Shown one piece after another: positions 2,999 through 23,473 of a stretch of 64,000 nucleotides of DNA. This DNA is from an uncultured Acidobacteriota bacterium. GTDB taxonomy: Bacteria; Acidobacteriota; UBA4820; DSQY01. Numbering within the stretch: the first letter of the stretch is position 1; each line of letters starts with the position of its first letter. Below the pieces are notes generated by a model. That model was not told the origin of the DNA, made no database searches, and saw only the letters and a list, made by a program, of their open reading frames with translations. Position numbers and translations under genes: made by a program. The stretch spans positions 17,780 to 81,779 of the forward strand of contig CAVRTJ010000006.1 of the NCBI GenBank assembly GCA_963724125.1, in the 5' to 3' direction.

Positions 2999-5900
2999 AT
3001 GAACATAGAGAAACCGCTCGCAGCCGCCATCAAGAAGCCCGTCGCCACGGTCCTCGTCTACGGGGTCCTGCTCGTTCTCGGACTGTACGCGCTCGTCCGG
3101 ATTCCCGTGGAGGTCCTACCCCGCTTCGACTACCCTGAAATAGCGATCATCGTGCACTATCCCGGCGCAACCACCGAAGACCTCGAAAACCAAGTCTGCC
3201 GGCCGCTCGAGGGGAGCCTTCTCGTGCTGCCTGCGCTGTCCTCCCTGCGCTCGGTCATGGGGCAGAACACGCTCGAGATCGACGCGCGCTTCCGCGGGGG
3301 AAGCAGCGCCCAGATGGACCTCCAAGCGACTTACAGCGCCATCGACCGCTCCCGGGCGCTCCTGCCTCCGTCGGTACATCCCCGCGCGGAGATCATGGGG
3401 GCGGCCATCGACGAGGTGGCGGACTACGCGCTGGAAATCCCAGCCGGAGTCAGGCCCATGGTCGCCCAGCGCGCCGTCCTGACCCGCGTAGCCCTGGCGG
3501 TGCGAGCGGTCAGCGGCATACGGAGGGTCGAAGTCTTCGGCAGCGGCACCGAATCGCTCTGGATACAGCCGAATCCGATGGCGCTGCGGCACTACGGAGT
3601 CTCTTGGCCCGACTCGCGTCGGCCGTTCGGAAACAGGTTCTGCTCGGGCCGGCGGGCTACCTCCGGCTCGGGCACCAGGACGTCCTCATCCAGGCCCGCG
3701 ATCTGCCTGCGCGGGTCGACGAACTCGCCTCGGTCACCGTCCCCGCTCCCGCGGGTCCCGTTCCATTGCACGCCCTGGCGAAGATATCCTTCGCCGCCAG
3801 GCCCATCCGTTACGGGAGGATCTGGACGGCAGGCGGACCATCGCCACGCTCGTGTTCAAGCACGGCAACGCGTCCACCCTGCCTGTCAGGCGGCGGTCGC
3901 CCGGACGGTCCGTTCACTCGCAGGTGAACTGCCCGCCGGCACGCACTGGATAAGGATCTACAGTCAGGGGCACCTGGTTCGCCTGATCGGGCACGACCTC
4001 GGCAGAAACCTCGTCATGGGAGGCATCCTGGCGATCCTGGTCCTATTCTGGCTCCTCGGAATGCACCGGGGGGTCTGGATCCTTGCCCGAGCATCCCCAT
4101 GTCCCTCCTGCCGGGAATCGCGGGGCTCCTACTTCACGGGCCAGAGCCTGAACCTGCTTACCCTTGGCGCCCTTTCGGTGGCCGTGGGCCTTCTGGCGGA
4201 TGACGGCATCATCGTTCTCGAAAGCATCTACCACCGCTGGGAACTCGGGTTCGAGGGGCGGGAGGGCATCCGCCGTGGTCTTTTGGACATAGCCTCCCCC
4301 GACGTGACGGGCACGATGACCACCGTGTCGGTGTTCCTTCCTTTCCTGTTCGTCGGAGGCCTCGCGGCTCTGTTTCTCGTGCCCTTCGCCCTGGCCATGG
4401 GGCTGTCGCTGCTCGCGTCACTGGTCATCTCCCTCACCCTCATACCGCTGCTGCTGGCCCTAGCCGGTCCCCCGAGACGCGGCTCCAGGGCGGCCGGAGC
4501 CGGCGTCGTGGGCTGGCTCGAAAGGCGCAACGAGAGACTCCTCGGTCTCACGCTCTCCCATCCCCGCTGGAGCCTGGCGACGGCCGTCGTCCTCCTGTTC
4601 GTGAGCGCGGGGGTCCTGGTCTTCGTGCCCTTCGACTTCCTGCCCCTGCCCAACGAAGGCGTCCTGCTGGACAGCTTCACGCTCCCCCCCGGCACGGCGC
4701 TGAAAGAAACCCGCGGGGCCGTTTCGCGCCTGACCGCGAAGCTCCGCGCGGACCACGACGTAGCCCACACCCTGACACGCATCGGTTCGGCGGGAGGCAC
4801 GAGCTACACCGAGCCGGATTACGCAGGCGAAATACAGGTGCGGCTTAAGCCGGGCGTCGACGTCAAGAGCCTGGACAGGCTCGCAGCCCGCCTAGTGCGA
4901 GAGAGCGAATGGATGGGGTGCAGCAGAGCGTGGATACGCCCACAATCGAGCGTCTTGGCGAGAGCCTGTCCGGGCTGCCCCAGCCCTTCGCCGTCACCGT
5001 CTACGGGAATCGCATCAGCACGCTCAGGCGCCTGTCGGACGAGGTCACGGCGCGCCTCAGGACCGTGCCTGACCTGACGGATCTATTCAACAACGACGCC
5101 TACCCGGTCACACAGCTGCGGATCGTGCCCAGACCCGCCGCCATGGCTCTCTACGGGATGGCGCCGGCCTCTCTCTACGACCAGGTACTCCCAGCCGTGG
5201 GCGGCGAGGTGCTCGCACGAGTACCGCAGGGCGCGTACCACACGGACATCTACCTCCGGCTGCCCCGCGCACCCGACCTCGGCATCCGCGGGCTGAGCAA
5301 GCTCCTTTTGAAAACCGCAAGCGGATGGACCCCCCTGGGCAGGCTGGCAAATCTTGAGATGGTGTCAGGCCCCAACGAAATCCGCCATATTGACGGAGCG
5401 AGAGCGCTGCAGATCATGGCGACCCCGACCGGGCCACTCGGCTCAACCGTTTCCGCGGCACGGCGAGCGCTCAGGGGACTCCACCTCCCGCCGGGCTACC
5501 GGATCGCCTTTGGAGGACTCATCGCAAGGCTTGAGAAGGAAGCATTGGGCCTCCTACTGGGCGCGGTCGGGGCGCTTGTGCTCATGACGGGAATACTGCT
5601 GCTCCAGTTCGACGGCCTGCTGCTGCCGGGCATCCTGCTCCTCGAAATGCCCCTCGCCTTCACCGGGGGCGCCCTGGCTCTGGGATTGAGCGGCGTGGGA
5701 CTGAACGCGACCGGAGTGGTCGGACTCCTGACGCTCGTCGGGATCAGCCTCAATCACGACATCGTTCTTCTCCACGCCGCCAGGCGCAATGAGGCGGACG
5801 GGATGATCCGTGAAGACGCGGTGCGTGCAGCGGTCTCGGTTCGCTTCCGCCCCATACTTCTCACCACCCTCACAGCGGCCCTCGGCATGCTGCCCACGGC

Positions 5901-6054
5901 CCTCGGCTGGGGTCTCGGCGCGGAACCCGAACAGGGTCTGGCCCTCGTCATCTTAGGGGGCGTCATCTGGAGTTCGGTGCTGAGCACGAACCTGATTCCG
6001 GCCCTGTACCTTCACTGGGCGCGGCCGCCGAAAGCCGGTCGGGACGAGACGTGA
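2999..6054 (+). pseudogene. RND efflux permease (HAE1/HME CzcA/CusA-like, ~1018 codons) interrupted by at least 5 frame changes. Either a pseudogene or indel errors.
   Basis: RND N-terminus MNIEKPLAAAIKKPVATVLVYGVLLVLGLYALVRIPVEVLPRFDYPEIAIIVHYPGATTEDLE in frame 2. Continuation in frame 1 (3604-3830: LARLASAVRKQVLLGPAGYLRLGHQDVLIQARDL). Back to frame 2 (GILAILVLFWLLG). A brief shift near 4070-4120 (correct reading IPMSLLPGIAGLLLHG). Then frame 1 from about 4905 for the C-terminal half (TM7-12, GVVGLLTLVGISLNHDIVLL). Confidence 0.75.
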
Positions 6055-8544: not shown

Positions 8545-10617
8545 ATGAATAACCTGGGGAACTACGCCCTTTTCATAGCGCTGGGCCTGGCCGCCTGGGG
8601 AATAGTGTCGTCCTCCGTAAGCTACAGGACGAAGGACCTCCGCTATCTCAGGTCAGCCATCCGATCGCTGTACGGAATATGCGCCATGGTCCTTCTGGCC
8701 GTAGGCGTGCTGTGGGTCGCGCTGCTCCGTAACGACTTTACGCTCAAGTACGTGTGGGAGTACTCGCGGTCGACGCAGCCCACAATTTACAAGATCACGG
8801 CCCTCTGGGGTGGAATGAACGGCTCGATCCTATTCTGGTGCGCACTTCTCTCGATCTTCTCCGCGCTTGCCGTCAGCTTCAACAGGAGAAACAACCTCAA
8901 GCTTCTGCCGTTCACGACGCTGGTTCTCTTCCTGACACTTGGGTTCTTTCTTTTTCTCCTGAACTTCAAGACGAGTCCCTTTCTGCCCCTCCGGGACTCG
9001 GCGGGCATACTTATAAGCACCTATTCACCGCAGATGCTGGCGAGGATCCAAGGCAACGGGCTCAATCCCCTGCTCCAGAACGTCTACATGGCCATCCACC
9101 CTCCGATGCTTTACATGGGGTACGTGGGCTTCGCCGTCCCCTTCGCTTTCATCCTGGGAGCGCTGGCCCACAAAGAGCGCAACACCTTCTGGATGCGGTC
9201 GGCCAGGAACTGGGCCATGTATGCGTGGCTCGCGCTCGGGATCGGTATCCTGCTCGGCGGTTATTGGGCCTACATCGAACTCGGCTGGGGCGGATACTGG
9301 GCATGGGACCCGGTGGAGAACGCGTCCTTCCTGCCGTGGATAACCGGCACCGCGTTCATACACTCTTTTCTCATGCAGGAGAAGCGCGGCATCTACCGCT
9401 TCTGGAACGTCTTCTTCATAGTGGCGACCTTCATCCTCTCCATTTACGGGACGTTTCTGACACGCTCGGGCATCCTTCAGTCGGTCCACGCCTTCGGGCA
9501 GGAAGACCCCTCCATCCCATGGTTCTTCAGACTGGGGACGATCTTCCTGGCCTTCATGGCGGGCATGCTCATCTTGAGCTTCGGACTCATCCTCCGCAGA
9601 AAGAAGCTTCTCACCAGCGGCCAGACCCTGGAATCGGCAGGCAGCCGTGAAACCATGTTCCTCTATGCGAACATCCTTTTCGGCCTCATGGCCTTCGTGG
9701 TTCTTTTCGGCGTCACCAGCCCGATCTTCTATCGCATGGCCACACACCATGAACTCAGCCGGGGCCCCGAATTCTATAACCCCAGGATGATCCCCATAGC
9801 GCTTCTCGTGCTTCTCGTCATGGGCATCGCCTCCATAGCTCCGTGGCGACGCGGCGGCTGGGCAGCTTACAGAAGGCAGATCCTCATCCCCGGAATAGCT
9901 GGCCTTTCCGCCCTGTTGGCCTCGCTAGCGGCCTTCTTCTCGGGTGGCGCGGCATCCAGGGCGGACTTCGCCTCCAGGCCGCTGACTTACATTTATCTCT
10001 TCGCGTGCGTGTCCCTGGCGTTTTTTGTTTCGGGCATTCTGTTCGAGGAGTACACCAGAACGGTCAAGCACGCCCACGCCACGCGCGGATTGAGTGCCCT
10101 TAAGTCCCTTCTGGCCCCTTTCAGGGACAACCCGAGGCGATACGGCGGCTACATCGTTCACCTCGGAGTGGTCTGCCTCCTCCTGGGCATAGCGTTTTCG
10201 GCGACTTTCCAGCGGGAATACCAGGAGACCATGAAACCAGGCGACTCTGCCCTCTTCGGCCCTTACACGGTAAGGATGGCGGACCTGAACCACGACGACC
10301 TGAACTCGAACCTGCAAAAGGTCAATGAGGTCAAGATCTGGGCCGACCTCCAGGTCTATCGGGGGCCAAAGCTGGTTGCCCTCCTGCGCCCCGAACGCGT
10401 CTATTACGCCAGTAATCCAGAGCAGCCCACCTACGAGGTGGCCATCCATTCCACTCTGATGAGGGATTTCTATACCTTGATGGCCGGCTTCGACCTCAAG
10501 AACAACACGGCCATCATCGGCGCCTTCGTCAATCCCATGGTGGCGTGGCTCTGGCTGGGCGGAGTCTTTATACTGATCGGCGGCATCACCGCTCTCTTGC
10601 CCATGAGGAGGACATAG
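8545..10617 (+). CDS. ccmF: Cytochrome c-type biogenesis protein CcmF (heme lyase subunit).
   Basis: Trp-rich WWD motif region (WGGMNGSILFWCAL..ELGWGGYWAWDPVENASFLPWITGTAFIHS) and about 15 TM segments. 690 aa, intact. Confidence 0.9.
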   Translation: MNNLGNYALFIALGLAAWGIVSSSVSYRTKDLRYLRSAIRSLYGICAMVLLAVGVLWVALLRNDFTLKYVWEYSRSTQPTIYKITALWGGMNGSILFWCALLSIFSALAVSFNRRNNLKLLPFTTLVLFLTLGFFLFLLNFKTSPFLPLRDSAGILISTYSPQMLARIQGNGLNPLLQNVYMAIHPPMLYMGYVGFAVPFAFILGALAHKERNTFWMRSARNWAMYAWLALGIGILLGGYWAYIELGWGGYWAWDPVENASFLPWITGTAFIHSFLMQEKRGIYRFWNVFFIVATFILSIYGTFLTRSGILQSVHAFGQEDPSIPWFFRLGTIFLAFMAGMLILSFGLILRRKKLLTSGQTLESAGSRETMFLYANILFGLMAFVVLFGVTSPIFYRMATHHELSRGPEFYNPRMIPIALLVLLVMGIASIAPWRRGGWAAYRRQILIPGIAGLSALLASLAAFFSGGAASRADFASRPLTYIYLFACVSLAFFVSGILFEEYTRTVKHAHATRGLSALKSLLAPFRDNPRRYGGYIVHLGVVCLLLGIAFSATFQREYQETMKPGDSALFGPYTVRMADLNHDDLNSNLQKVNEVKIWADLQVYRGPKLVALLRPERVYYASNPEQPTYEVAIHSTLMRDFYTLMAGFDLKNNTAIIGAFVNPMVAWLWLGGVFILIGGITALLPMRRT

Positions 10618-12978: not shown

Positions 12979-13278
12979 ATGTACCATTTGCTGACCGACA
13001 AGCAGATCGAAAGTAACATGAAGGACCTCGAGGGATGGGTTGCGAAAGACAAGTCCCTCACCAGGCACTTCCGCTTCGAAGGCTACATGGATGCACTCAA
13101 GTTCGTCGAGGCCGTTGCGGTTGACGCAGAATCCCGTGATCACTACCCCGACGTTCTTTTCAAGTACCTCGAAGTGGTCATAGTGCTCTCATCCCACGAC
13201 GGTGAAGGAATGACTGAAATGGACTTCATTTCAGCCAGGGCGATCGATAAACTGGCGGCGACTTTCAACGCCGGCTAG
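12979..13278 (+). CDS. 4a-hydroxytetrahydrobiopterin dehydratase (pterin-4a-carbinolamine dehydratase).
   Basis: LEGWVAKDKSLTRHFRFEGYMDALKFVEAVAVDAESRDHYPDVLFKYLEVVIVLSSHDGEGMTEMDF matches the PCD/DCoH fold motifs. Confidence 0.8.
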   Translation: MYHLLTDKQIESNMKDLEGWVAKDKSLTRHFRFEGYMDALKFVEAVAVDAESRDHYPDVLFKYLEVVIVLSSHDGEGMTEMDFISARAIDKLAATFNAG

Positions 13279-13427
13279 GCCGTCCCGCAGAGGTCCACGG
13301 CATCCCCCCGCTTTGCCGAAAACCGAGGAATATCTGTCCCCTGTCCAACTCATTGGTCTACCTGGCCTTAGCTCCCGGATGGCCCCGCATGCCCCACCAG
13401 TTGCCCACAACGCCAGCCCTGTTGGAT

Positions 13428-13455
13428 TTGACTCTGCCCCGAAAATCTGTATAAT
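13428..13455 (+). promoter_or_regulatory. Candidate sigma70 promoter for tRNA-Lys (TTGACT, 16-nt spacer, TATAAT).
   Basis: Near-consensus hexamers ending about 7 nt before the mature tRNA 5' end. Confidence 0.45.
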
Positions 13456-13462
13456 TGCCCAC

Positions 13463-13538
13463 GGACCGCTAGCTCAATTGGTAGAGCAGCGGACTCTTAA
13501 TCCGTTGGTTCGGGGTTCGAGTCCCCGGCGGTCCACCA
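13463..13538 (+). tRNA. tRNA-Lys (anticodon CTT), with encoded CCA.
   Basis: Cloverleaf read by hand. Acceptor GGACCGC/GCGGTCC, D-arm GCTCAATTGGTAGAGC, anticodon loop CTCTTAA, T-arm CGGGGTTCGAGTCCCCG, ACCA end. Confidence 0.9.
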
Positions 13539-13960
13539 GGCAGAATGATCCCAGGGAGGCGCAGCCTCCCTTTTTTGCTGTATACGGCATCGGTCTGCAC
13601 GAGGGAGCGAGAAGGGCGGGGTTTTCCGTGGTTTTTGAGGTGCAGGCGCCAACTGCTTGGCGCCGCGCCCCCCGCCCCGGGAACCACAGCTTCCCTTGAA
13701 ACGCAGCGAACCGTGCGAACGAGGCTTCTAGGAAAGGTCGGTTCGAGTCCCCGGCGGTCCACCAGGCAGAATGCCCCAGGGAGGCGCAGCATCCCTTTTT
13801 TGCTGTGCACCGCATCGGCCTGCACGATTGAGCGAGAAGGGTGGGGGGCGCCCATGGTTTTCCCGACGCGGACCCCAACTGCTTGGCGACGCGTTTTCTT
13901 AGCCCCGAAAGGCCCCCCGCTCCGGAAACGCTCGCTGCCCTTGAAACGCCATGCCTTCAG
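13514..13960. repeat. Tandem duplication, two units of about 225 bp at roughly 80% identity. Each unit begins with the tRNA-Lys T-arm/3' end, including the terminator-like segment.
   Basis: GGTTCGAGTCCCCGGCGGTCCACCAGGCAGAATG..CCCAGGGAGGCGCAGC..TCCCTTTTTTGCTGT recurs at 13514 and 13739. CCAACTGCTTGGCG(C/A)CGCG recurs at about 13648 and 13875. CCCTTGAAACGC recurs at about 13694 and 13938. Confidence 0.6.
13554..13577 (+). terminator. Rho-independent terminator after tRNA-Lys.
   Basis: GGGAGGC-GCAG-CCTCCC hairpin followed by TTTTTT. Confidence 0.6.
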
Positions 13961-14114
13961 AACGCGCCATCGGGTATGGTGAAGAGGGCGATATTCGCGC
14001 GGACAATCCCCCCTCCAGGCGCAGGACGGCTTACGACTTTTTCCTTTTCTTTCACGCCTTTACTTGCCTGCAGGCCCGAATGCGCGCTATAATAATTCGC
14101 CTTCTGGAGGGGTT

Positions 14115-14651
14115 ATGCCTCGTCGGTTTCTGGTGCGTGCTGCTTTTCGCAGCGTCGTTATATGTGCGCTCTCCCTGCTGTTCGCGATCGTGTTGTTTCA
14201 CTTCATCTTTCAACCCTTTCAGGTCTCCGGTTTGAGCATGGTGCCGACGTTGGAGAACCACGACTACATACTCATCGACCGCGTATTCTCTCGGGACGAC
14301 GATATCCAGAGGGGCGAACTCGTTGTTTTCCGGCTGAAAAGCCGCGGTCCATTCATTGTCAAGAGGGTGGTCGGCCTTCCCGGCGAGAAGCTTCAGATCA
14401 GGCGGGGGCGCTTGTACATCGACGGCAGGCACATCTCGTCTCTTGACGAAAAGATGTCCGCTCGCTCACACTTCGGTCCCGTCGTTGTTCCTCGCGGAAC
14501 CTATTTCTGCCTCGGGGACAACCGCGCGGTCAGCCTTGACAGCAGAGCGTTCGGGCCCGTTAAGGCATCGAGTATTTACGGCAAGGTGCTGCTGAGGTAT
14601 CTGCCACTCAGGCAGGGTTCGTTGCTTGAGAGGCAAATCGATGCGAAATGA
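14115..14651 (+). CDS. lepB: Signal peptidase I.
   Basis: S26 motifs GLSMVPTL (catalytic Ser box), VKRVVGLPGE, CLGDNRAVSLDSR (box E). N-terminal TM anchor. Confidence 0.85.
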   Translation: MPRRFLVRAAFRSVVICALSLLFAIVLFHFIFQPFQVSGLSMVPTLENHDYILIDRVFSRDDDIQRGELVVFRLKSRGPFIVKRVVGLPGEKLQIRRGRLYIDGRHISSLDEKMSARSHFGPVVVPRGTYFCLGDNRAVSLDSRAFGPVKASSIYGKVLLRYLPLRQGSLLERQIDAK

Positions 14652-14684
14652 GAGCGTCCTAGTGGTCCTCTTCACAGGGGGGTA

Positions 14685-15802
14685 TTGCCGGTGAGCCTGT
14701 CCACTACTCAGCTGCAGGGGGACTTCTCGCAGCTGGGTCTTCCCGAGATCCTCGACTATGTCACGACCACGGGCAGAACGGGCGTTCTGCTCCTACGCAA
14801 CGGGGCGGTTACAAAGACACTTCATTTCAAGAGCGGCATCGTGGTGTTCGCCTCTTCCAACGTTTCCGAAGAACGTTTCGGCGAGATGCTCCTGCGCGAA
14901 GGCAAAATCACGAAAGAACAGTTCGACGAGGCGAGTAAACACGTCACACGCGGCAAGAGGCTCGGCAAAATACTCGTCGAGATGCAGGCCCTCTCTCCCA
15001 AGGAGCTCTGGAACGAGGTGCGCCGCCAGGTCCAGGAAATCGCCTATTCCGTTCTCCAGTGGGATTCGGGGGCTTTCCAGTTTTTCGAAGGCGAAGAGCG
15101 GACCGGAGAAAACATCACAACGTCACTGACCGTCCCCGAACTGCTCCTGGAGGGTTTGAGGCGGATAAAAACTCCGGACCTTTTCGACGAGCGCATACCC
15201 AAGAAAGACGTCGTATTTGAGCGCGTTCTGCCCGCCCACAGGCCGTCGGGGCTCCATTTCGAAGAGTATGAAAAGCACGTGTTCAAGCTCGTCGACGGAT
15301 CGAGGAGCGTCCAGGAAATCTGCGATTTGAGCGAAATCGGCGAATTCGAGACGCTCAAGACCCTCTTTATCTTCTTCACCATAGGGTATCTTCACGTGAA
15401 GGGGCGCAAGGACCGATTCGAGGAAGAACAGCGCGAGATGCGCGAACTCTCCGATCTCATCAGGAACTACAATGAGATGTTTTCCTTTATGTACCATTAC
15501 CTATTGCGGGAGATAGGCCCGATCGCGGAGAATATCCTCGAAAAATACCTTGGACGTCTAAGACGGCCCAACCCGAGGTATTCGGCAGGGTCACCATCCG
15601 TTCAAACGGTGCGCTTTCAGAAGAGCGGATTCTTGAGAACATGATGGAACTTCAGGGAGATCGTTCCGCCATTCTCGTGCAAGCCCTGAACGAATATCTC
15701 TATTCGGCACTCCTGGCGATCAGGAGGACGCTCGGCTCCGATCACGAATCCAAGGTCATGCAGACCCTCCGAAGCACTCGAAAAGACCTGTTCCGTGGGT
15801 GA
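14685..15802 (+). CDS. DUF4388 domain protein (PATAN-type response-regulator-like N-terminal domain) with one frame disruption near 15570.
   Basis: N-terminal QLQGDFSQLGLPEILDYVTTTGRTGVLLLRNG is the DUF4388 signature. After RRPNP the sensible reading continues in another frame (EVFGRVTIRSNGALSEERILENMMELQGDRSAILVQALNEYLYSALLAIRR..KDLFRG, stop at 15800). Confidence 0.55.
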
Positions 15803-16751
15803 ACCCGATACCCGTACCCGCCCGGTGGGGCAGTTACTCGGCATCGTCGGACCCACCGCCGCAGGCAAAAGCGCATTTGCCCTGGAAGTAGCCACACGCT
15901 TCGGCGGGGAGATCGTCTCCTGCGATTCCATGGCGGTCTACCGCAGACTGGACATAGGGACCGACAAACCCTCGCCTGCCGATCGCGAACGCATCCCCCA
16001 TCACCTCGTCGACGTCGCCGAACCTGGATCGTACTACTCGGCCGGAGCTTTCAGGCGGACCGCGCTCGGCGTAATGCAGGACATTTGGAGCCGCAACAGG
16101 CTGTGCGTCCTGGTCGGAGGCACTGGGCTCTATTACAGGGCCCTCACGCAGGGCCTTATTGCAGTCCCCGGCCGACAGGAGGACCTGAGACAACGCCTGC
16201 AGGCGCGCATCCGCAAAAACGGTCCAGAGAGGCTTCATCGCGTTCTCGCCCGCTTCGACCCCTAACCGCCGCCCGAATAGGCACACGCGATTCCTTGAGA
16301 ATAGTGCGAGCGATGGAAGTGTTCATTGCAACCGGCAAGCCCCTATCGCAATGGATCACCGAGACTCCATTCGGAAAGAGGGCCATTCCGGGACTGAGAC
16401 TTGGTTTCGGCGCCACGGGAATTCCTTTACGATAGAATCGAGAGCAGAGTCGACGAGATGATGAGGCGGGGATTGCTCAAGGAGGTGAAGGCACTCCACC
16501 GGGAGGGTGTGCTCACAGGCCCGGTCAGGAAAGCCATAGGTTACATGGAATTAGCGGCCGTTCTAGAGGGTTTGATAAGTCTTGATGAGGCAGTCGCTCA
16601 AATCAAACGGCATTCGAGACGCCTCGCAAAGCGGCAAATGACATGGTTTAGAAAAGAAACCGACATTAAATGGGTCGAAATCGATAAGGAGGCCTGGAAA
16701 AATGATGCAATGGAATTCATCAAAAGATGGTCCGAAAAAACCGGCCGCTAA
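15795..16751 (+). CDS. miaA: tRNA dimethylallyltransferase MiaA, split over three frames (shifts near 16260 and 16420).
   Basis: P-loop GIVGPTAAGKSAFALEVA, DSMAVYRRLDIGTDKP in frame 0. Then DSLRIVRAMEVFIATGKPLS in frame 2. Then REFLYDRIESRVDEMMRRGLLKEVKAL..AIGYMEL..IKRHSRRLAKRQMTWFRKE back in frame 0. Confidence 0.75.
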
Positions 16752-17055
16752 TCGTGAAGTCAACATCCAAAACCAGATACTCAATTTCGTACGGAAGGAC
16801 AGGGCTCTCATTACAATCTTTCTGGTAAGCGGCAAGAAATTCGTCGGCCAGGTGCTTGGCTTTGACCGCTACACAATCCACATCCGCGGGCGCGATTACG
16901 ACCAGATCGTTTTCAAACACGCCATCACAAACGTGTCGGTTCCCCGGCATATCATGCAGAAGCTTCAAGGCGTGGAGGGCGAAGACGACATGGGCTTGGA
17001 TTCCGATTTCGACACCCGCGACGTCACCAGGGGGGAAGACGATCCCGTTTCATGA
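16702..17055 (+). CDS. hfq: RNA chaperone Hfq.
   Basis: Sm fold QNQILNFVRKDRALITIFLVSGKKFVGQVLGFDRYTIHI..QIVFKHAITNV and an acidic C-terminal tail. AAGGAGG RBS at 16686. Conserved miaA-hfq order. Overlaps the miaA 3' end by 50 nt. Confidence 0.9.
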   Translation: MMQWNSSKDGPKKPAANREVNIQNQILNFVRKDRALITIFLVSGKKFVGQVLGFDRYTIHIRGRDYDQIVFKHAITNVSVPRHIMQKLQGVEGEDDMGLDSDFDTRDVTRGEDDPVS

Positions 17056-17061
17056 CGAGCC

Positions 17062-17107
17062 GCCCCTCCCCGGACCGTCGGGCCGTGGGAGGGGCTTGTT
17101 GATTTGT
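17062..17107 (+). terminator. Rho-independent terminator downstream of hfq.
   Basis: GCCCCTCCC ... GGGAGGGGC inverted repeat followed by a T-rich tract (TTGTTGATTTG). Confidence 0.6.
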
Positions 17108-17135
17108 AGAAAGCGATTCGCCGAGGGGGGACAGG

Positions 17136-17789
17136 ATGGGCACGGACCTCCTGAAGAAAGTCGAGTTTTTCATCCCTTGATCGCCTGCAACTCGGGGCCA
17201 TCCTCAAAGTCGCTGAGACACGGCTCTTCCCGAAAAACACCATTATCTTCCACCGGGGCGAGCCCGGCGACAGCCTCTACGTCATACTCAGCGGGCGCGT
17301 CAAAGCCATACTGATCGGAGAGGACGGGAGGAGTAACCCTCGCCTTTCTCCGCGGGCGAGATAGTAGGCGAAATGGCCCTTTTCGATCCCGGAGAGCACA
17401 GGTCGGCCACCGTCGTGACCGTAGAGCCTTCCGAACTGATGATGCTCACGCGGGAACAGTTCATGCGGGCCATCCCAGCCAACCCCACCATAGCCCTCTC
17501 CGTCATGAAAACGCTTGCCCGTGGGTCAGGGAAACCTCCAAAAGAGTGGGCGACCTGATCTTCCTGGACACCTTCAGCCGACTCGCGCGCTACTTGATGG
17601 AACTCGCGCAGAAGGAAGGCCACCCGTTGGCAGAGGTCCACGCTCATCACCCGCCCCACCCAGGAGGAAATCGCTCATTTCATAGGCGCCAGCCGCGAAA
17701 CCGTCAACCGGGTTCTCAAGGAACTCGAAAATCAGGGATTCATCCGGCTCGTCAGGCGCAAGATCATCATCTATCGCACTCTGCCCTGA
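17136..17789 (+). pseudogene. Crp/Fnr-family transcriptional regulator (cNMP-binding plus HTH) interrupted by 3-4 frame changes.
   Basis: Pieces in three frames: LDRLQLGAILKVAETRLFPKNTIIFHRGEPGDSLYVILSGRVKAILIGEDGRE, VTLAFLRAGEIVGEMALFDPGEHRSATVVTVEPSELMMLTREQFMRAI, DLIFLDTFSRLARYLMELAQKEGHPL, and the HTH EIAHFIGASRETVNRVLKELENQGFIRL. Confidence 0.7.
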
Positions 17790-17932
17790 CCGTCCCGCCC
17801 GACCCGCAGACGTCCTTCGCGCACGCACCTCCTAGCTTGCGGATCGCTCGATCACCATTAGCTGAACCCCTTCAATCCCAAGTCGCTCGCATGCTATAGT
17901 ATCTTTTGTAATTCCACCAATGGAGGGGTCTT

Positions 17933-19023
17933 ATGCGCAGAATCCACGCCGGCAGGATTATCGCACTGGTCGCCCTTGTGGCCTTGTCGGTCATGGCCGT
18001 CCAGACTCTTTACAAGCCTTATCGCGAGAAGCTTCCACACGGGTGGTGGACTGGGACCAGGGCTGGATAAGGGCCGATGTCAGCGTTCCTCTCAAGACCG
18101 GTCGTCCCGCCGCCCAGGCAAGGGTAGAGGCCAGGAGGGTGGCCATGATGAAGGCCCAGGCCGAAGCGCTCCGCATCGCCATGCGCCTTCCCGTTGACAG
18201 CGAGAGCAGGCTTGAATCATACGAGGCGCTGCGAATCCACGTGCGGGGCATCGTGGCCGGCGGCGAGGTCGTCTCGGAAGGGATAAGCAACGGTACGTAC
18301 GAACTCTCGTTGAACGTCCCCATCAACGGCGTCAAGGGCATTGCGGCCGAGGTGGCCAAGATCACGCTTCCTCCGCCCGAACACGACGCCGCGCCGCCCG
18401 CCGAAGTCGAGCCGCCTTCCGGACAAGGTGGCGCGCATAAACAACATGCTTCAAGCGAACCCGAGGCTGGCAAAGAGCCCATCCAGAAGCCAGGAGTGGC
18501 CTCCCTCTCCGCGTTTTCCTCGGTTACCGTCGATGCCAGCGAAACCGGCGTAAAGCCCGCCCTCCAGGCCCGGATAGTAGATCCAGACGGGCGCGAGGTA
18601 TACGGAGCGAAGACGGTCAAGCCCCTTGTCGCACGGGAGCGGACGCTGGCCCGGTACGTCACGAAGGGTGACTCCACGGGATCCGCGGACAACGCCTCGT
18701 GGCTGAACCCCGACAGGCTGGGGGCCATACCGTTGGCTCTCATCTCGCCGCCACAGCTCCTCCTCGCCCAGCGAGCGCCCTCTCGGAGACCGAGGGGCTC
18801 CGAGGAGTCCCTCACCGTCAGGGCTGAAAACGCCGCTGGAAAACTCAAGGCCGATATCGTGGTCACAAGGGAAACCGCCGAAAAGCTCAGGAAGCTCAAC
18901 GAGGAAACGGGGGCCCTGACGGAGGGACGTGTGGTGGTCATAGTACGCGCCGACGTCGGCGGCGTGGAGAGCCGAAAGGGCCTTCGCCGCCCCTCCCGAT
19001 CCAGTGTCCTCGCCCTGCGTTAG
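17933..19023 (+). CDS. LPP20-like periplasmic protein. A possible frame disruption near 18040 joins a signal peptide to the body.
   Basis: Signal peptide MRRIHAGRIIALVALVALSVMAVQ sits in a frame adjacent to the long ORF 17920..19023. The body has an LPP20-type pattern (AAQARVEARRVAMMKAQAEALRIAMRL..HVRGIVAGGEVVSEGISNGTYELSLNVP). Confidence 0.45.
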
Positions 19024-19041
19024 GATTCCGGAAAGTCTATA

Positions 19042-20865
19042 GTGGCAAGGCGAACATCAGTTCTCGCTGGATTGGCACTCGGCTTGGCTCTGGCCGGAGT
19101 CGTGGCGCTTCCCCTGGCTGCGGGGCTTGCCTCCGCCGGCGAAGGACGCATCTACGACATCCTGATGCGACTCCGGGAAGGCCGGCCTTCCGCTAAGGTC
19201 CGCCTGGTTTGTCTGGATGATACGACCTTTTCGGCGCTTGGGGGCCGTAATCCGACACGGGCAGAGATAGCCTCGGCCGTCGACAATATCTGGCAGGCCG
19301 GTGCGAGTCTCATCGGGCTTGATCTGCTGTTCGACCAACCTCGCGACGAAGCCGGGGACGACGCGTTGCAAAAGGCGCTGGCGAGCGCCGACGCCGTTCT
19401 CGCCTGCAGTCCCTCCAACGGCCTCATGCCCATCCAGCGGTTTCGAAGTCAAGCCGTTGGTCTCGGATCCGTCGATTTCCTCACCGACCGGGACGGGATC
19501 GTGCGTTCCCTGCCGGGGCCCTACTTTCAGAGCGACGGAAAGAGCCTCGCCGTTCGATACATGCCGATGGCGCTCGAGTGCGCTTTGCTTTACTGGTATC
19601 CCCGCACACACCCCCCACTGAAGCTTTCCCATGACAAGCTCAAGATCGGAGATCATGACTTTTCAATGGCGGGTCACTCGTGGCTGATCCCATTCTGCGG
19701 CGGGGACGGCACTTTGCCCCGGCTCTCGTTCCTGACCGCCCTCAAAGGAGGATCGGCGCTAAAAGCCCTCAAGGGGACGATCGTCCTCGTGGGTTCGACG
19801 CGTCCCAGCCAGCACGACTTTTTCTCGGTCCCGTTGCCGCGGCGCCGGACACGGACCGGGGCGTTCAAGGAACTTGGCAGCAATACCATGGCGGGCGTCG
19901 AGATACACGGCCAGGCGCTCTCTGCACTTCTGGACGGGCGTTCCATCGTTCCGGTCGGCCCCGCCATGCGGTGGCTTTTGTTCGGACTCCTGGCCCTGCT
20001 GGGAACCACTCTCACCATCTTTCCCATGAAGCCCGTCGCCTCCCTCGGTCTCTGGCTCATGTTGGGATTAACCATCGAAATCGGCGGCATCGCGGCCATG
20101 CTTCACGGCCGCCCCTTCCCCCTCCTCGGCCTTTCATTGACGTGGCTCGCGTATGCAGGGACGTCCTTCTCCTACCATCGCTACCTCGATTTCCGCGAAA
20201 GAAAGGCCGTCGAAATACTATTCAGCCGCTACGTGTCACCCAACATCGCGCGGGCTCTTCTCGCCAGGCCCGACTTGGTCCACCTGGGCGGAAGACGGAA
20301 GGTCCTCTCCGTCCTCTTCGTGGACATACGAGGGTTCACCAGCCTCTCGGAGCGCCTCCCGCCCGAGGCCGTCAGCGCCCTGCTCAACGAATACTTCACG
20401 GAAATGACGGACGTACTCTTCGGTTTCGACGGAACCCTGGACAAGTTCATCGGAGACGCCCTTCTGGCTTTTTTCGGCGACCCCGTCGACCAGGAGGATC
20501 ACCCGGCGCGCGCAATAGCGTGCGCGGTCGCCATGCAGAAGAGAGCGGCAGCACTTCGCGAGAGATTCGAGTCGGAAGGCAAACCCGCCCTTCATGTCGG
20601 CATTGCCGTTCATACGGGGCCTGTTGTCGTCGGGAACAACGGTTCGGCCGACAACTTTGATTACACGGTCATCGGAGACGCCGTGAACCTCGCCTCGCGG
20701 CTCCAGGCCCTAGCCACGGCGGACGACGTCATAACGACGACCCGGACCATCGAACATATTTTCGAGTTCAAAACGCGTTATGCTTATGAAGAGCTGCCAC
20801 CTGTACAGGTGAAAGGAAAAAGCGAACCCGTAGCCATTGCTAGGGTTCTGGGGCCAGTCCAATAG
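19042..20865 (+). CDS. CHASE2 extracytoplasmic sensor domain plus class III adenylate/guanylate cyclase.
   Basis: N-terminal TM, then CHASE2-like RLVCLDDTTFSALGGRNP..GASLIGLDLLFDQP. Several TM segments. Cyclase core LSVLFVDIRGFTSLSERL..DKFIGDALLAFFGDP..AIACAVAMQ..HVGIAVHTGPVVVGNNGS..YTVIGDAVNLASRLQ. Confidence 0.85.
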   Translation: MARRTSVLAGLALGLALAGVVALPLAAGLASAGEGRIYDILMRLREGRPSAKVRLVCLDDTTFSALGGRNPTRAEIASAVDNIWQAGASLIGLDLLFDQPRDEAGDDALQKALASADAVLACSPSNGLMPIQRFRSQAVGLGSVDFLTDRDGIVRSLPGPYFQSDGKSLAVRYMPMALECALLYWYPRTHPPLKLSHDKLKIGDHDFSMAGHSWLIPFCGGDGTLPRLSFLTALKGGSALKALKGTIVLVGSTRPSQHDFFSVPLPRRRTRTGAFKELGSNTMAGVEIHGQALSALLDGRSIVPVGPAMRWLLFGLLALLGTTLTIFPMKPVASLGLWLMLGLTIEIGGIAAMLHGRPFPLLGLSLTWLAYAGTSFSYHRYLDFRERKAVEILFSRYVSPNIARALLARPDLVHLGGRRKVLSVLFVDIRGFTSLSERLPPEAVSALLNEYFTEMTDVLFGFDGTLDKFIGDALLAFFGDPVDQEDHPARAIACAVAMQKRAAALRERFESEGKPALHVGIAVHTGPVVVGNNGSADNFDYTVIGDAVNLASRLQALATADDVITTTRTIEHIFEFKTRYAYEELPPVQVKGKSEPVAIARVLGPVQ

Positions 20866-20876
20866 GGAGGTTGACC

Positions 20877-21956
20877 ATGTGTAGACACCCCGCTTTGCTC
20901 GGCGCGATCCTGATCCTGCTCATGGGGCTTGCGCCCATGGCGCAGACCACGGTCACGGTCACGGGAACCGCCGCCATTCTGAACAAAGATGCGACCCAGG
21001 CCCGGGATCGGGCCATCGAGAATGCGCTGAGAACGGCCGTGGAGAGAGTCGTAGGCACCATGGTCGATTCGGACAGCCTGGTCAAAGACAATGACCTCCT
21101 CTCGGACAAGATCTATACCCAGACCACGGGCTACATATCGAACTACAAGATCCTCTCCGAGAGCAGCGACACCGATTCGAACATCTACAGCGTGAAGGTC
21201 GAAGCCTCGGTCAAAGAGGGCAACCTCTCCAACGATCTCAAGTCCCTCGGCGTCCTGATGCACAGGATGGATATGCCCCGCGTGGCCGTGGCGCTCCAGG
21301 AACAGGACGAGACCGCATCCGACCAACTCCTGAGAATGCTGAAAAACAAGGGTTTTCTCGTCGTCGATACGGGGCAGAAATCTCAGTCGCAGGGCTTCTG
21401 GGATATGAACCAGGGACAACAGGCGGACCTGATGAAGCGGTACGGCGCCGAAGTCGTGATTCTAGGCACGGCGAAGGGCGAAGGAGGATCCAGCATCGGC
21501 GGCTCGAGCCTCAAGTCCTACCAGGCCAACGTGAGCCTCAAGGCCCTCAAGACAGATTCCCACGAAGTGCTTGGAACCTCCACGGGCAGTGGAACGGCCG
21601 TGCACGTCGGTGAGGCGGGCCTGACACAGGCGACGAGACAGGCCATCACCGTCGCGGGCAACGACATCCTGAGGCAGATTACATCTCAGTGGGCTAAAGA
21701 GACATCATCCACCCGTATCATCGCGCTGGAAGTCCTTTCTGCTGATGCGTCGAAGGCCGGGAATATAGCAAAAAAACTCAAGCAACAGGGACGTGGGATA
21801 CAAGATGCCATCGTCCGCGAAGCCGAAGGGGGACGCGCTACGCTGAACGTCTCCATGCAGGGAGACGCCTCGGCTCTGGCACAGGAAATCAGGAAGATCT
21901 ATCCGGGAGCACGGATCGTCTCCCAGTCCGCAAACCGTTTGACAGTGTCTTTTTGA
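20877..21956 (+). CDS. Exported two-domain protein with an LPP20-like N-terminal domain and a CsgG-like second domain.
   Basis: GGGAGG RBS. Signal peptide LLGAILILLMGLAPMAQT. TVTVTGTAAILNKDATQARDRAIENALRTAVERVVG (LPP20-type). Then PRVAVALQEQDETASDQLLRMLKNKGFLVVD (CsgG-like motif). Confidence 0.5.
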   Translation: MCRHPALLGAILILLMGLAPMAQTTVTVTGTAAILNKDATQARDRAIENALRTAVERVVGTMVDSDSLVKDNDLLSDKIYTQTTGYISNYKILSESSDTDSNIYSVKVEASVKEGNLSNDLKSLGVLMHRMDMPRVAVALQEQDETASDQLLRMLKNKGFLVVDTGQKSQSQGFWDMNQGQQADLMKRYGAEVVILGTAKGEGGSSIGGSSLKSYQANVSLKALKTDSHEVLGTSTGSGTAVHVGEAGLTQATRQAITVAGNDILRQITSQWAKETSSTRIIALEVLSADASKAGNIAKKLKQQGRGIQDAIVREAEGGRATLNVSMQGDASALAQEIRKIYPGARIVSQSANRLTVSF

Positions 21957-21990
21957 AGCGTTTATTCTGGACATAAGGGAGGACAAGCCC

Positions 21991-22881
21991 ATGAAACGGA
22001 CACTCGTTTCTATTTTCATTGCACTCTGCGTGATGACCTCGCTGGCGGCTCTGGCCCAGAAGCCGAGGATAGCCGTTCTTAAGATCAGAAACGACCAGCC
22101 TTACGGCGGCGCCCGCCTCGGCCCGGCCGTCGGAGACTGGCTCGTCGAAAAGCTCGTCCAATCGGGGCAGTATCGCGTCATGGAACGCCGCGAGATCAAC
22201 TCGGTCCTGCAGGAACAGGGATTTTCTCTCAGCGGAGCCGTCGACGATAAGACCGCCATCCAAGCCGGTAAACTCCTCGGCTGCCAGCTCGTCGTCCTGG
22301 GAGCGGTCACCGACTTTTCCCGGCACAAGTCCGGCGCCCACGGCGCATTCGGCATCGCCTTCAACGTCGGGAAGGTAACGGCCGAGGGAACGCTCAATAT
22401 AAGGCTTGTCAACACCACAACCGGCGAGATCGTGTACACGGGGAGCGCCTCCGGCACACACTCTTTTTCCAAGGTGGACGTGGCCGGTTTCGGGGGTGGC
22501 GTGGATTGGGATGAATCCCAGGCCAGGCAGATCTTCGAACCCGCCGTGACCCACTTGGTGAACAAGATTGTGGCCAAAACGGCTGCGATCAAGGACAGTC
22601 TCGGATCCGTCGCTGAATTATCCGGCAAGGTCGCGAAAGTCGATGCCGGGAAGCTCTTTCTCAACATTGGCAGTACCGACGGCGTGAAGCAGGGCGACAA
22701 GTTTTCACTTTATCACGTGGGTGATACAATCACCGATCCCGACACCGGAAAGGTCTTGGGACAGGAAAAGACTAGAATCGGGACCGTGACGGTCACCAAA
22801 GTCATGGCCGATCACCTCTCGGTGGGCGTCCTCGACGGCGGCGGCCACGCGGAAGTCGGCGACGCCGTTCAGAAGCAGTAG
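21991..22881 (+). CDS. CsgG-family outer-membrane lipoprotein (curli-secretion-channel-like) with a C-terminal beta-rich extension.
   Basis: AAGGGAGG RBS. Signal peptide. PRIAVLKIRNDQ..GPAVGDWLVEKLVQSGQYRVMERREINSVLQEQGFSLSGAVDDKTAIQAGKLLGCQLVVLGAVTDF is the CsgG family signature. Confidence 0.7.
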   Translation: MKRTLVSIFIALCVMTSLAALAQKPRIAVLKIRNDQPYGGARLGPAVGDWLVEKLVQSGQYRVMERREINSVLQEQGFSLSGAVDDKTAIQAGKLLGCQLVVLGAVTDFSRHKSGAHGAFGIAFNVGKVTAEGTLNIRLVNTTTGEIVYTGSASGTHSFSKVDVAGFGGGVDWDESQARQIFEPAVTHLVNKIVAKTAAIKDSLGSVAELSGKVAKVDAGKLFLNIGSTDGVKQGDKFSLYHVGDTITDPDTGKVLGQEKTRIGTVTVTKVMADHLSVGVLDGGGHAEVGDAVQKQ

Positions 22882-22924
22882 GGATAGGGGGGTGGATGGG
22901 CACCATGCCCGTTGAGGCTCAGCG

Positions 22925-23473
22925 ATGACCATACCCAACGTGCTGACGGTATTCCGGATGGTGCTCATCCCCTTCTTTCTCATGGCCGTCATTTACGGCC
23001 ATCCCAGGCTTGCGCTTTGGATTTTTGTGGGCGCCGGACTCACCGATGGCCTGGACGGTTTCATTGCACGCTTCTTCAATCAGAAATCGACCCTTGGAGC
23101 TTTTCTCGACCCGATGGCCGACAAGCTCATCCTCACCAGTGCCTACATTGCGCTCGCCCTGCCTGAAACAGGTATGGCGCATACCATTCCCATGTGGATC
23201 GTCGTGCTTACCATAGCGCGCGACGTGGTCATCGTCATGCTCGCCCTGATACTCAATCTCAGCCACGCCATCAGGAGTTTTCCGCCGTCCATCCCCGGGA
23301 AGTTTACGACCTTCTTCCAGATCGCCTTCGCGGTGGCGGTCCTGCTTCAAAACGGTTATTATTTCCCGGATTGGATCGTAGCCTTTCTGCTGTGGTCCGT
23401 GGCGTTCTTTACCGTCTTTTCAGGCCTTCACTACCTCTGGCGCATGAGAATAATGATCAAGGACACGCCGTGA
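22925..23473 (+). CDS. CDP-alcohol phosphatidyltransferase (PgsA-like), paralog 1.
   Basis: GLTDGLDGFIARFFNQKSTLGAFLDPMADKL matches the D-G-x2-A-R...G...D-x3-D motif. Multi-TM. Confidence 0.8.
   Translation: MTIPNVLTVFRMVLIPFFLMAVIYGHPRLALWIFVGAGLTDGLDGFIARFFNQKSTLGAFLDPMADKLILTSAYIALALPETGMAHTIPMWIVVLTIARDVVIVMLALILNLSHAIRSFPPSIPGKFTTFFQIAFAVAVLLQNGYYFPDWIVAFLLWSVAFFTVFSGLHYLWRMRIMIKDTP

Follow-up and report, generated by a model that had tools for sequence, protein, structure and literature searches.

We analyzed four open reading frames (ORFs), here called g1 to g4, that span positions 17933–22881 of a 64,000-nucleotide (nt) stretch of DNA from an uncultured Acidobacteriota bacterium (assembly GCA_963724125.1, contig CAVRTJ010000006.1, positions 17,780–81,779), referred to below as the window. 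With moderate confidence, we propose that this locus is a conserved cyclic AMP (cAMP)-signaling envelope module of the Thermoanaerobaculia (Acidobacteriota), and we infer a mechanism for it below. All four ORFs lie on the + strand and are separated by short spacers (18, 5–11 and 34 nt at g1/g2, g2/g3 and g3/g4), in agreement with the co-directional, tightly spaced genes of a preliminary description of this DNA. They encode an exported LPP20-like protein (g1, 17933–19023, ORF 17920/17933–19023), a CHASE2 class III cyclase of 607 amino acids (aa) (g2, 19042–20865), an exported FlgT-like protein (g3, 20871/20877–21956) and a protein with a CsgG fold and an FlgT_C domain (g4, 21991–22881).

The cyclase is the best defined of these proteins in Pfam, where CHASE2 (PF05226) matches residues 21–319 of g2 (nt 19102–19998) at 4.7e-38 (131.6 bits against a cut-off of 26.3) and Guanylate_cyc (PF00211) matches at 8.4e-22, bearing out the first reading of this gene as a CHASE2 class III cyclase. 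Hydropathy analysis places hydrophobic segments at residues 4–33 and 302–376, giving a topology with one N-terminal transmembrane (TM) helix (TM1, ~5–30), a periplasmic stretch of ~280 residues, a cluster of three TM helices (~311–376) and a cytoplasmic class III catalytic domain (residues 422–595, nt 20305–20826); the CHASE2 domain lies between the N-terminal helix and the helix cluster. In alignments with the nearest solved relatives, the guanylate cyclase Cya2 (2W01) and Pseudomonas aeruginosa CyaB (3R5G), g2 retains the two metal-binding aspartates (D428 and D472) and the transition-state asparagine and arginine (N549 and R553). Comparison of the substrate-specifying residues had been suggested as a way of telling cAMP from cGMP synthesis. 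The specificity pair of g2, K468 (in DKFIGD) and T542 (in DYTVIGD), is the same as that of CyaB, whereas Cya2 has E and G at these positions, and because of this match to CyaB and mismatch to Cya2, the product of g2 is predicted from its residues to be cAMP rather than cGMP. A Lys/Thr substrate pair is characteristic of class IIIb adenylate cyclases.

Evidence that the cyclase belongs to this operon comes from its conservation. We scanned an alignment of g3 homologues against one genome per GTDB species, which gave 80 loci, and annotated these through phmmer comparison to the proteins of the window and of the L002 operon. The order g1-g2-g3-g4 followed by a pgsA-like gene is found in all 12 species representatives of the acidobacterial cyclase clade (L006–L017) and in a metagenome contig (L001), with g3 59–93% identical across these loci. 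In L001, L011, L013 and L016, overlaps of 4 nt at g1/g2, g2/g3 or g3/g4 couple the genes in translation. In nine Nitrospirota loci, the order LPP20-like–cyclase–g3 occurs inside a fuller operon that also contains TPR, DUF799 and lipidated CsgG genes. Because the order is kept in the 12 acidobacterial representatives, in L001 and in the nine Nitrospirota loci, the cyclase is a lineage-specific, stably inherited component of the operon and not an accident of this genome; the gene-order search proposed in the preliminary description, which had allowed that the linkage might prove incidental if related operons never carried the cyclase, found orthologous operons that do carry it. The other 59 of the 80 loci, from Desulfobacterota/Myxococcota, Nitrospinota, Calditrichota, Thermodesulfovibrio and others, lack the cyclase and have the order LPP20-TPR-g3-(DUF799)-CsgG-(PEGA)-FecR or subsets of it. 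FecR is found in 19 of these cyclase-less loci, as against 0 of the 21 g3 operons that contain a cyclase. Only in L036 does a g3 operon with FecR have a CHASE2 cyclase in its vicinity; that cyclase gene (13102–15126, − strand) is convergent, lies just past the pgsA-like gene and falls in the FecR-associated clade of the cyclase tree.

That neighbor-joining tree, which contains 86 CHASE2 cyclases, places all cyclases with a preceding g1-like gene in one clade, consisting of the window clade, L086/P0122-4, L087/P0126 and the Nitrospirota proteins. Among the CHASE2 cyclases sampled outside this clade, a FecR-type gene lies upstream in four cases, immediately so in L088, L090 and L092 and as identified by motif in L091, and the cyclase of L089 is preceded by a gene for a cyclic-nucleotide-binding (cNMP-binding) protein. 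Hence g1 occupies the slot that FecR normally fills beside CHASE2 cyclases. The pairing of g1 with the cyclase is also the tightest conserved unit of the locus: homologues of g2 (36–38% identity) in two further Acidobacteriota loci, L086 and L087, are preceded by a g1-like gene and lack g3 and g4, the order in L086 being miaA-hfq-g1-like-cyclase.

The g1 protein itself is divergent. Its signal peptide, MRRIHAGRIIALVALVALSVMAVQ, begins at the ATG at 17933; behind it come a putative, divergent N-domain of SHS2/LPP20-like type, a Pro-rich linker and a C-domain that is conserved and includes the motifs VTVDA..GVKPAL..RI.DP.G..VYG and RADVGGVE. No Pfam domain reaches threshold in g1 (best FlgT_N, E 0.13), and none of 27 members of the g1 family matches Pfam LPP20 (PF02169), FlgT_N again being the best match (E 0.09–0.2). 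Kinship with LPP20 appears to be transitive only: the LPP20 protein of L002, which matches Pfam LPP20 at 1.5e-8, matches g1 at 2e-12 over both halves (phmmer) and the g1-like protein of L086 at 7e-25, and the LPP20-like proteins adjacent to the Nitrospirota cyclases match g1 at ~1e-18 to 5e-20. The AlphaFold 2 model of g1 has a predicted local distance difference test (pLDDT) score of 59.5 overall and ~80 in the N-domain. Its top Foldseek match, Tp0624 (1e-6), is not relied on, given the poor model, and weak matches include a Campylobacter jejuni motor scaffold (9HMF, 1.2e-2), FlgT (0.15), HP1454 and Tip-alpha. Alignment of g1 with the g3 N-domain by hhalign gives only 23% probability over 55 columns; a common SHS2 origin of the two N-domains is no more than plausible.

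The relationship of g3 to FlgT is clearer. From its probable start at ATG 20877, preceded by the ribosome-binding site GGGAGG, g3 encodes a protein with a Pfam FlgT_N match (PF16548, 1.2e-8, 35.8 bits against a cut-off of 28.8). The model (pLDDT 79) has three domains: an SHS2/FlgT_N domain (residues 25–131) with a conserved insert (62–88), a domain of CsgG/FlgT_M fold (137–279) and a ferredoxin-like domain (281–360) with a predicted beta-alpha-beta-beta-alpha-beta order. Structurally, it comes closest to full-length Vibrio FlgT (3W1E; Foldseek 1.7e-11 over 376 columns), together with the LPHT ring; the next matches, to CsgG (4UV2, ~1e-5), GNA1162 and LptE, fall in the range 1e-5 to 1e-4. The middle domain has no Pfam sequence match to FlgT_M and is recognized by its fold alone, and FlgT_C is not found at the C-terminus of g3, being located in g4 instead. 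The g3 family is large, with 1,842 clusters (50% identity) at E≤1e-30. We also note that g3 resembles Leptospira LipL46 (1e-11).

In g4, a CsgG fold (residues 19–195; PF03783, 3.2e-26, 92.4 bits against a cut-off of 20.8) precedes an FlgT_C-type beta domain (222–287; 5.3e-8), which weakly resembles the secretin-associated ring protein TsaP (3JC8). The protein aligns to CsgG residues 77–186 with low similarity (phmmer E 3e-3), and its segments are shorter than those of CsgG across this span, which presumably includes the first transmembrane-hairpin (TM1) region of CsgG. The g4 signal peptide is of type I, with ALA-Q, and the window protein also has IALC with a noncanonical Leu at −1. Orthologues of g1, g3 and g4 have no conserved lipobox cysteine and carry AxA-type signal peptides instead; the majority of g4 orthologues have no cysteine at all, whereas lipoboxes are present in canonical CsgG-like genes from other phyla. 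For this clade, we reject the reading of g1, g3 and g4 as lipoproteins.

These results change the preliminary description in several respects. It had presented the locus as a lipoprotein operon, which the missing lipobox contradicts, and had likened it to CsgG/LPP20/DUF799 trios. DUF799 (PF05643) occurs in L002 and in numerous loci of Desulfobacterota, Nitrospinota and Nitrospirota and is absent from the window and from every acidobacterial cyclase-clade locus, so no such trio exists here. The LPP20-like label of g1 holds by homology to the L002 protein, not by any Pfam LPP20 match. Modeling of g3 supports the proposed fusion of an LPP20-type N-terminus to a CsgG-type second half, with a third, ferredoxin-like domain where two domains had been counted. 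Finally, g4 keeps its CsgG-family assignment and its beta-rich extension, now recognized as FlgT_C, and loses its status as a lipoprotein.

A candidate reader of cAMP is encoded next to the operon. A crp-like gene (17136–17789, + strand) with cNMP-binding and Crp helix-turn-helix (HTH) domains lies upstream of g1, and such a gene is directly upstream of g1 in eight of the nine acidobacterial loci with enough upstream sequence. The window gene retains the phosphate-binding cassette GEIVGEMALF...HRSATVV, and its orthologue in L006, intact at 240 aa, matches cNMP_binding (7.2e-27) and HTH_Crp_2 (6.3e-18); the best NCBIfam match of the latter protein is the cAMP-activated CRP PRK11753 (8.6e-44), at 149.5 bits below the cut-off of 266. 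When 195 kb of acidobacterial loci were searched for TGTGA-N6-TCACA, only seven sites with at most one mismatch were found, and all seven lie in the crp–g1 spacer (L007 4946–4961, L008 4948, L009 4948, L010 4939, L011 4088, L013 5023 and L017 4938). Two further CRP-box-like palindromes, each with two mismatches, lie upstream of g1 in L001 (269) and L016 (383). The palindrome takes the form TGTGC/CGTGA-N6-GTCACA, with one per locus, confined to the spacer 5′ of g1. The suggestion that the envelope proteins are wired to cAMP signaling is strengthened by the adjoining CRP gene and by these boxes in relatives; physical wiring remains our conjecture.

Parts of the window carry frameshifting insertions or deletions (indels) that affect how these genes are read. 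The comparison reference was L006, the closest species representative, a Thermoanaerobaculia metagenome-assembled genome ~91% identical to the window over 13.3 kb. In the window, the g1 frame from ATG 17933 ends after 45 codons and the long ORF continues in another frame, one base being missing at 18042/18043 relative to L006, whose 363-aa g1 is intact. Some 10 further frameshifting indels relative to L006, at 15558–17634, disrupt DUF4388, miaA and the crp-like gene; most are single-base deletions, miaA is split into three ORFs, and a three-frame translation of the crp-like gene reveals at least three frameshifts, with pieces in frames 0, 1 and 2. No indels relative to L006 occur within 18405–22886. 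An AcrB-type gene far upstream (2999–6054) is likewise split, into two ORFs. These indels are probably assembly errors rather than real decay, because most are single-base deletions, the distant AcrB-type gene is also split, and the genes are intact in a relative 91% identical to the window.

How might the module work? In the mechanism that we favor, g1, g3 and g4 would be Sec-exported, non-lipidated proteins that together form a complex, a periplasmic scaffold, built from an LPP20/FlgP-like SHS2 fold (g1), a fold like that of full-length FlgT (g3) and a CsgG fold combined with FlgT_C (g4). We suggest a scaffold because all three proteins appear to use folds of ring-forming assemblies and because g3 has the SHS2 insert, the presence of which in FlgP and FlgT is correlated with ring formation (PMC12222027). 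The scaffold proteins would be co-expressed with a four-TM receptor adenylate cyclase bearing a periplasmic CHASE2 domain, and g1 could be the periplasmic partner that contacts this domain, since its gene lies directly upstream of the cyclase gene, often overlapping it, in the usual position of FecR. By this contact, g1 might report the state of the g3/g4 scaffold beneath the outer membrane, and signaling would then run inward, with the cyclase turning scaffold state into cAMP and the adjacent CRP-family regulator reading the cAMP. In most relatives, CRP could in addition feed back on the operon via the CRP box upstream of g1.

Several observations weigh against this proposal. No CRP box with up to three mismatches lies at positions 17700–17935 of the window, and none was found in the L006 spacer, leaving the CRP link in the window genome to gene adjacency alone, and no CRP gene is found near the Nitrospirota loci. 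In the window itself, the crp-like gene is frameshifted and g1 carries its 1-nt deletion. The kinship of g1 with LPP20 is weak by Pfam, by hhalign and by the pLDDT of its model, and no outer-membrane anchor is evident in the exported proteins. The g1–cyclase pairs of L086 and L087 suggest that g3 and g4 may be dispensable for sensing. Moreover, in a neighbor-joining tree built from LPP20-like proteins, those that partner the Nitrospirota cyclases cluster with Nitrospirota paralogues and not with acidobacterial g1; as this tree did not join the partners of the two phyla, we do not claim that the g1–cyclase pair moved as a unit.

Some of the same observations invite other explanations, of which the most credible is that g1 and g2 form a self-contained periplasmic sensor pair, in the manner of FecR and CHASE2, and that g3 and g4 have no role in signaling. 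We regard this as a real possibility, held tentatively. Here, g1 would adjoin g3 and g4 by descent from an LPP20 gene heading the ancestral g3 operon, which fits the full-length homology of g1 to the gene that heads the canonical operon, the existence of g1-like–cyclase pairs without g3 or g4 in L086 and L087, and the appearance of the Nitrospirota pair as an insertion between the TPR gene and g3 of an otherwise canonical operon. Ancestry alone, however, would not predict, over such divergence, a pair kept directly 5′ of g3 in 21 species-level representatives of two phyla, with overlapping stop and start codons. It is unlikely, in our view, that regulation instead runs from the inside out, with CHASE2 sensing a periplasmic cue unconnected with the scaffold, for instance a small molecule or osmotic/envelope stress, and cAMP-CRP merely controlling expression of a scaffold to which the cyclase is not physically coupled. 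The CRP boxes upstream of g1 in nine relatives are what this scheme would predict, and the ligand of CHASE2 is generally unknown (PMC5192318), but the scheme leaves unexplained why, in this cyclase subfamily, a g1-like gene always stands at the position that FecR occupies beside other CHASE2 cyclases and why FecR is absent from every cyclase-containing operon.

Readings centered on known machines fare worse. If g4, possibly with g3, were a CsgG-type outer-membrane secretion channel, the cyclase could monitor or gate export, and the Pfam CsgG match of g4 and its alignment to residues 77–186 of Escherichia coli CsgG speak for such a role. Yet g4 orthologues lack a lipobox cysteine, no CsgA/B/E/F-like curli partners are encoded in the operon or its flanks, similarity to CsgG itself is low, and the fold also occurs in FlgT_M, LpoB, GNA1162 and LptE, which are not channels; we judge a secretion channel highly improbable. 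Still further down the scale, and close to negligible, is a flagellar accessory ring (an H-ring or basal disc of FlgT/FlgP/FlgO type) that would tie the cyclase to motility control. It would account for the FlgT_N and FlgT_C domains and for Vibrio FlgT and the LPHT ring as the best structural match of g3. However, neither the neighbors nor the 20 largest of the remaining window ORFs include a flagellar gene, in several phyla the locus is set between housekeeping genes (miaA, hfq, pgsA-like, rpsA), and the C-domain of g3 differs from FlgT_C. The notion that the cyclase is an incidental neighbor, functionally unrelated to the flanking genes, is disfavored and scarcely credible. Its absence from 59 of the 80 g3-operon representatives and a promoter-like site (10/12 matches) just upstream of g4 could be cited in its favor, as against a gene order that 21 representatives of two phyla keep, the overlaps between genes, the monophyly of the associated cyclases, and the adjacent CRP gene and CRP box.

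The proposed cAMP-signaling envelope module has parallels among known systems. In Sinorhizobium meliloti, the CHASE2 cyclases CyaD1/CyaD2/CyaK act through the outer-membrane protein NsrA and the CRP-family regulator Clr, whose regulon includes periplasmic, FecR-domain and TPR proteins (PMC13001267, PMC5498481). As in CyaD1/NsrA/Clr, the locus combines a CHASE2 class III cyclase, an envelope protein, a cAMP signal (predicted here) and a CRP-family regulator. By contrast, NsrA is an outer-membrane beta-barrel and does not share one operon with SHS2/CsgG-fold proteins, whereas the candidate partners in the window are LPP20-, FlgT- and CsgG-like exported proteins encoded around the cyclase. Clusters of a CHASE2 sensor with FecR and TPR proteins, including a Campylobacterota adenylate cyclase cluster (PMC9239204) and the Burkholderia BiofilmReg operon (PMC5192318), similarly encode a CHASE2 transmembrane sensor beside an exported partner, but the upstream partner in the window subfamily is the LPP20-like g1 and not FecR. 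The closest solved catalytic domain, that of P. aeruginosa CyaB (1.9e-36), shares the Lys/Thr pair with g2 and belongs to a cyclase that signals to a CRP-family protein (Vfr); unlike g2, CyaB has a MASE2 membrane sensor rather than CHASE2 and no co-encoded periplasmic scaffold proteins.

The exported proteins have their own parallels. Like Vibrio FlgT (3W1E; LPHT ring 8Z5N), which it matches over its full length, g3 has an FlgT_N domain with an insert between the SHS2 helix and strand 2, and the FlgT_C domain of g4 and the LPP20-like character of g1 recall the FlgT and FlgP/Lpp20 proteins of flagellar rings and discs (PMC12222027). The differences from FlgT are a non-flagellar context, the splitting of FlgT domains over two window proteins, the ferredoxin-like C-domain of g3 and the absence of a lipid anchor. 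Within the LPP20/DUF799 (GNA1162-like)/CsgG clusters, g1, g3 and g4 are homologous to the LPP20, FlgT-like and CsgG genes, and the window locus shares its miaA-to-pgsA-like chromosomal slot with the L002 operon. Unlike those clusters, the window clade has no DUF799, TPR, PEGA or FecR gene and no lipobox in its CsgG-like protein, and its CHASE2 cyclase sits in the place that the TPR gene takes in other operons.

A full-text literature search found no paper combining CHASE2 with LPP20, FlgT, CsgG or DUF799. The preliminary claim that this is an undescribed system is therefore sound as regards the LPP20/FlgT/CsgG partners and overstated as regards the general arrangement, for which the CHASE2/FecR/TPR clusters and CyaD1/NsrA/Clr are analogues. 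A CHASE2 cyclase with an exported partner and a CRP-family regulator is a known theme; the kind of partner, the embedding in a widespread envelope operon and the mutual exclusion of FecR and cyclase within that operon are new. The cyclase-less operons carry FecR and TPR proteins, the protein types that accompany CHASE2 elsewhere.

More broadly, CHASE2 is a sensor domain of bacterial cyclases and histidine kinases whose signals are largely unknown, and the locus offers a concrete protein-partner hypothesis that narrows the question to four or five genes. It also defines a monophyletic cyclase subfamily in which an LPP20-like protein replaces the usual FecR neighbor, here within an operon of FlgT-like and CsgG-like proteins next to a CRP regulator, and it draws attention to a very large, many-phylum family of envelope operons that encode non-flagellar relatives of the builders of flagellar rings and discs, with FecR and TPR members of the kinds known beside CHASE2 sensors in other settings. 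A more ambitious synthesis, speculative and on the whole doubtful, would hold jointly that CHASE2 domains read the state of a periplasmic scaffold via interchangeable FecR- or SHS2/LPP20-type partners and not small molecules, that LPP20-TPR-FlgT-like-DUF799-CsgG-PEGA-FecR operons build a ring-like structure in the envelope that is related to the outer discs of flagella but not itself flagellar, and that the window operon is a variant with a cAMP cyclase and CRP output hard-wired into that structure.

Other members and variants of this operon family deserve mention. In L073, L078 and L080–L085 (Thermodesulfovibrio/Nitrospiraceae), a tandem of three small LPP20-like genes immediately precedes g3; CsgG is found at a greater distance downstream, and TPR, cyclase and FecR genes are absent. 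The TPR protein of the canonical L002 operon (4356–5528) has a C-terminal SLH domain (1e-6), which hints at attachment to a cell-wall polymer, and the FecR protein of the same operon (8813–9631) resembles Leptospira LipL45/Lsa33 (~1e-14). Together with the likeness of g3 to LipL46, this suggests that some known surface antigens of Leptospira may be members of the operon family.

Around the locus, an extended −10-like element, TGCTATAGT (17892–17900, + strand), can be proposed from sequence in the crp–g1 spacer; it is also kept in L006 and was not flagged by a consensus promoter scan. A sigma-70-like site (21939–21968), TTGACA-18-TATTCT with 10/12 matches, lies where g3 ends, shortly before the start of g4; it may be an internal promoter or have arisen by chance. 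The consensus promoter and terminator scans gave no enrichment over shuffled sequences, and we treat this one internal promoter-like site as uninformative. None of the gaps of the operon holds a terminator-like site. Downstream of g4, on the + strand, the pgsA-like gene (22925–23473) encodes a CDP-alcohol phosphatidyltransferase (TIGR00560, 1.9e-27, below cut-off) and is a conserved neighbor that we do not count as a member of the system. A pgsA-like gene also trails the FlgT-like/CsgG operon in at least nine loci of other lineages (for example L002, 9648–10190), in several of which miaA precedes the operon. This flanking reflects either a gene order conserved to unusual depth or a functional link with phospholipid synthesis. 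Elsewhere in the window, at 13463–13949, a tRNA-Lys(CTT) gene is followed by a tandem duplication of ~226 bp. At its start, each unit repeats the final 25 nt of the tRNA exactly (13514–13547 and 13740–13773), and it contains the terminator-like hairpin CCCAGGGAGGCGCAGCCTCCCTTTTTT; L006 appears to have additional copies of the unit. The duplication could represent the scar of an integration event or an array of repeats.

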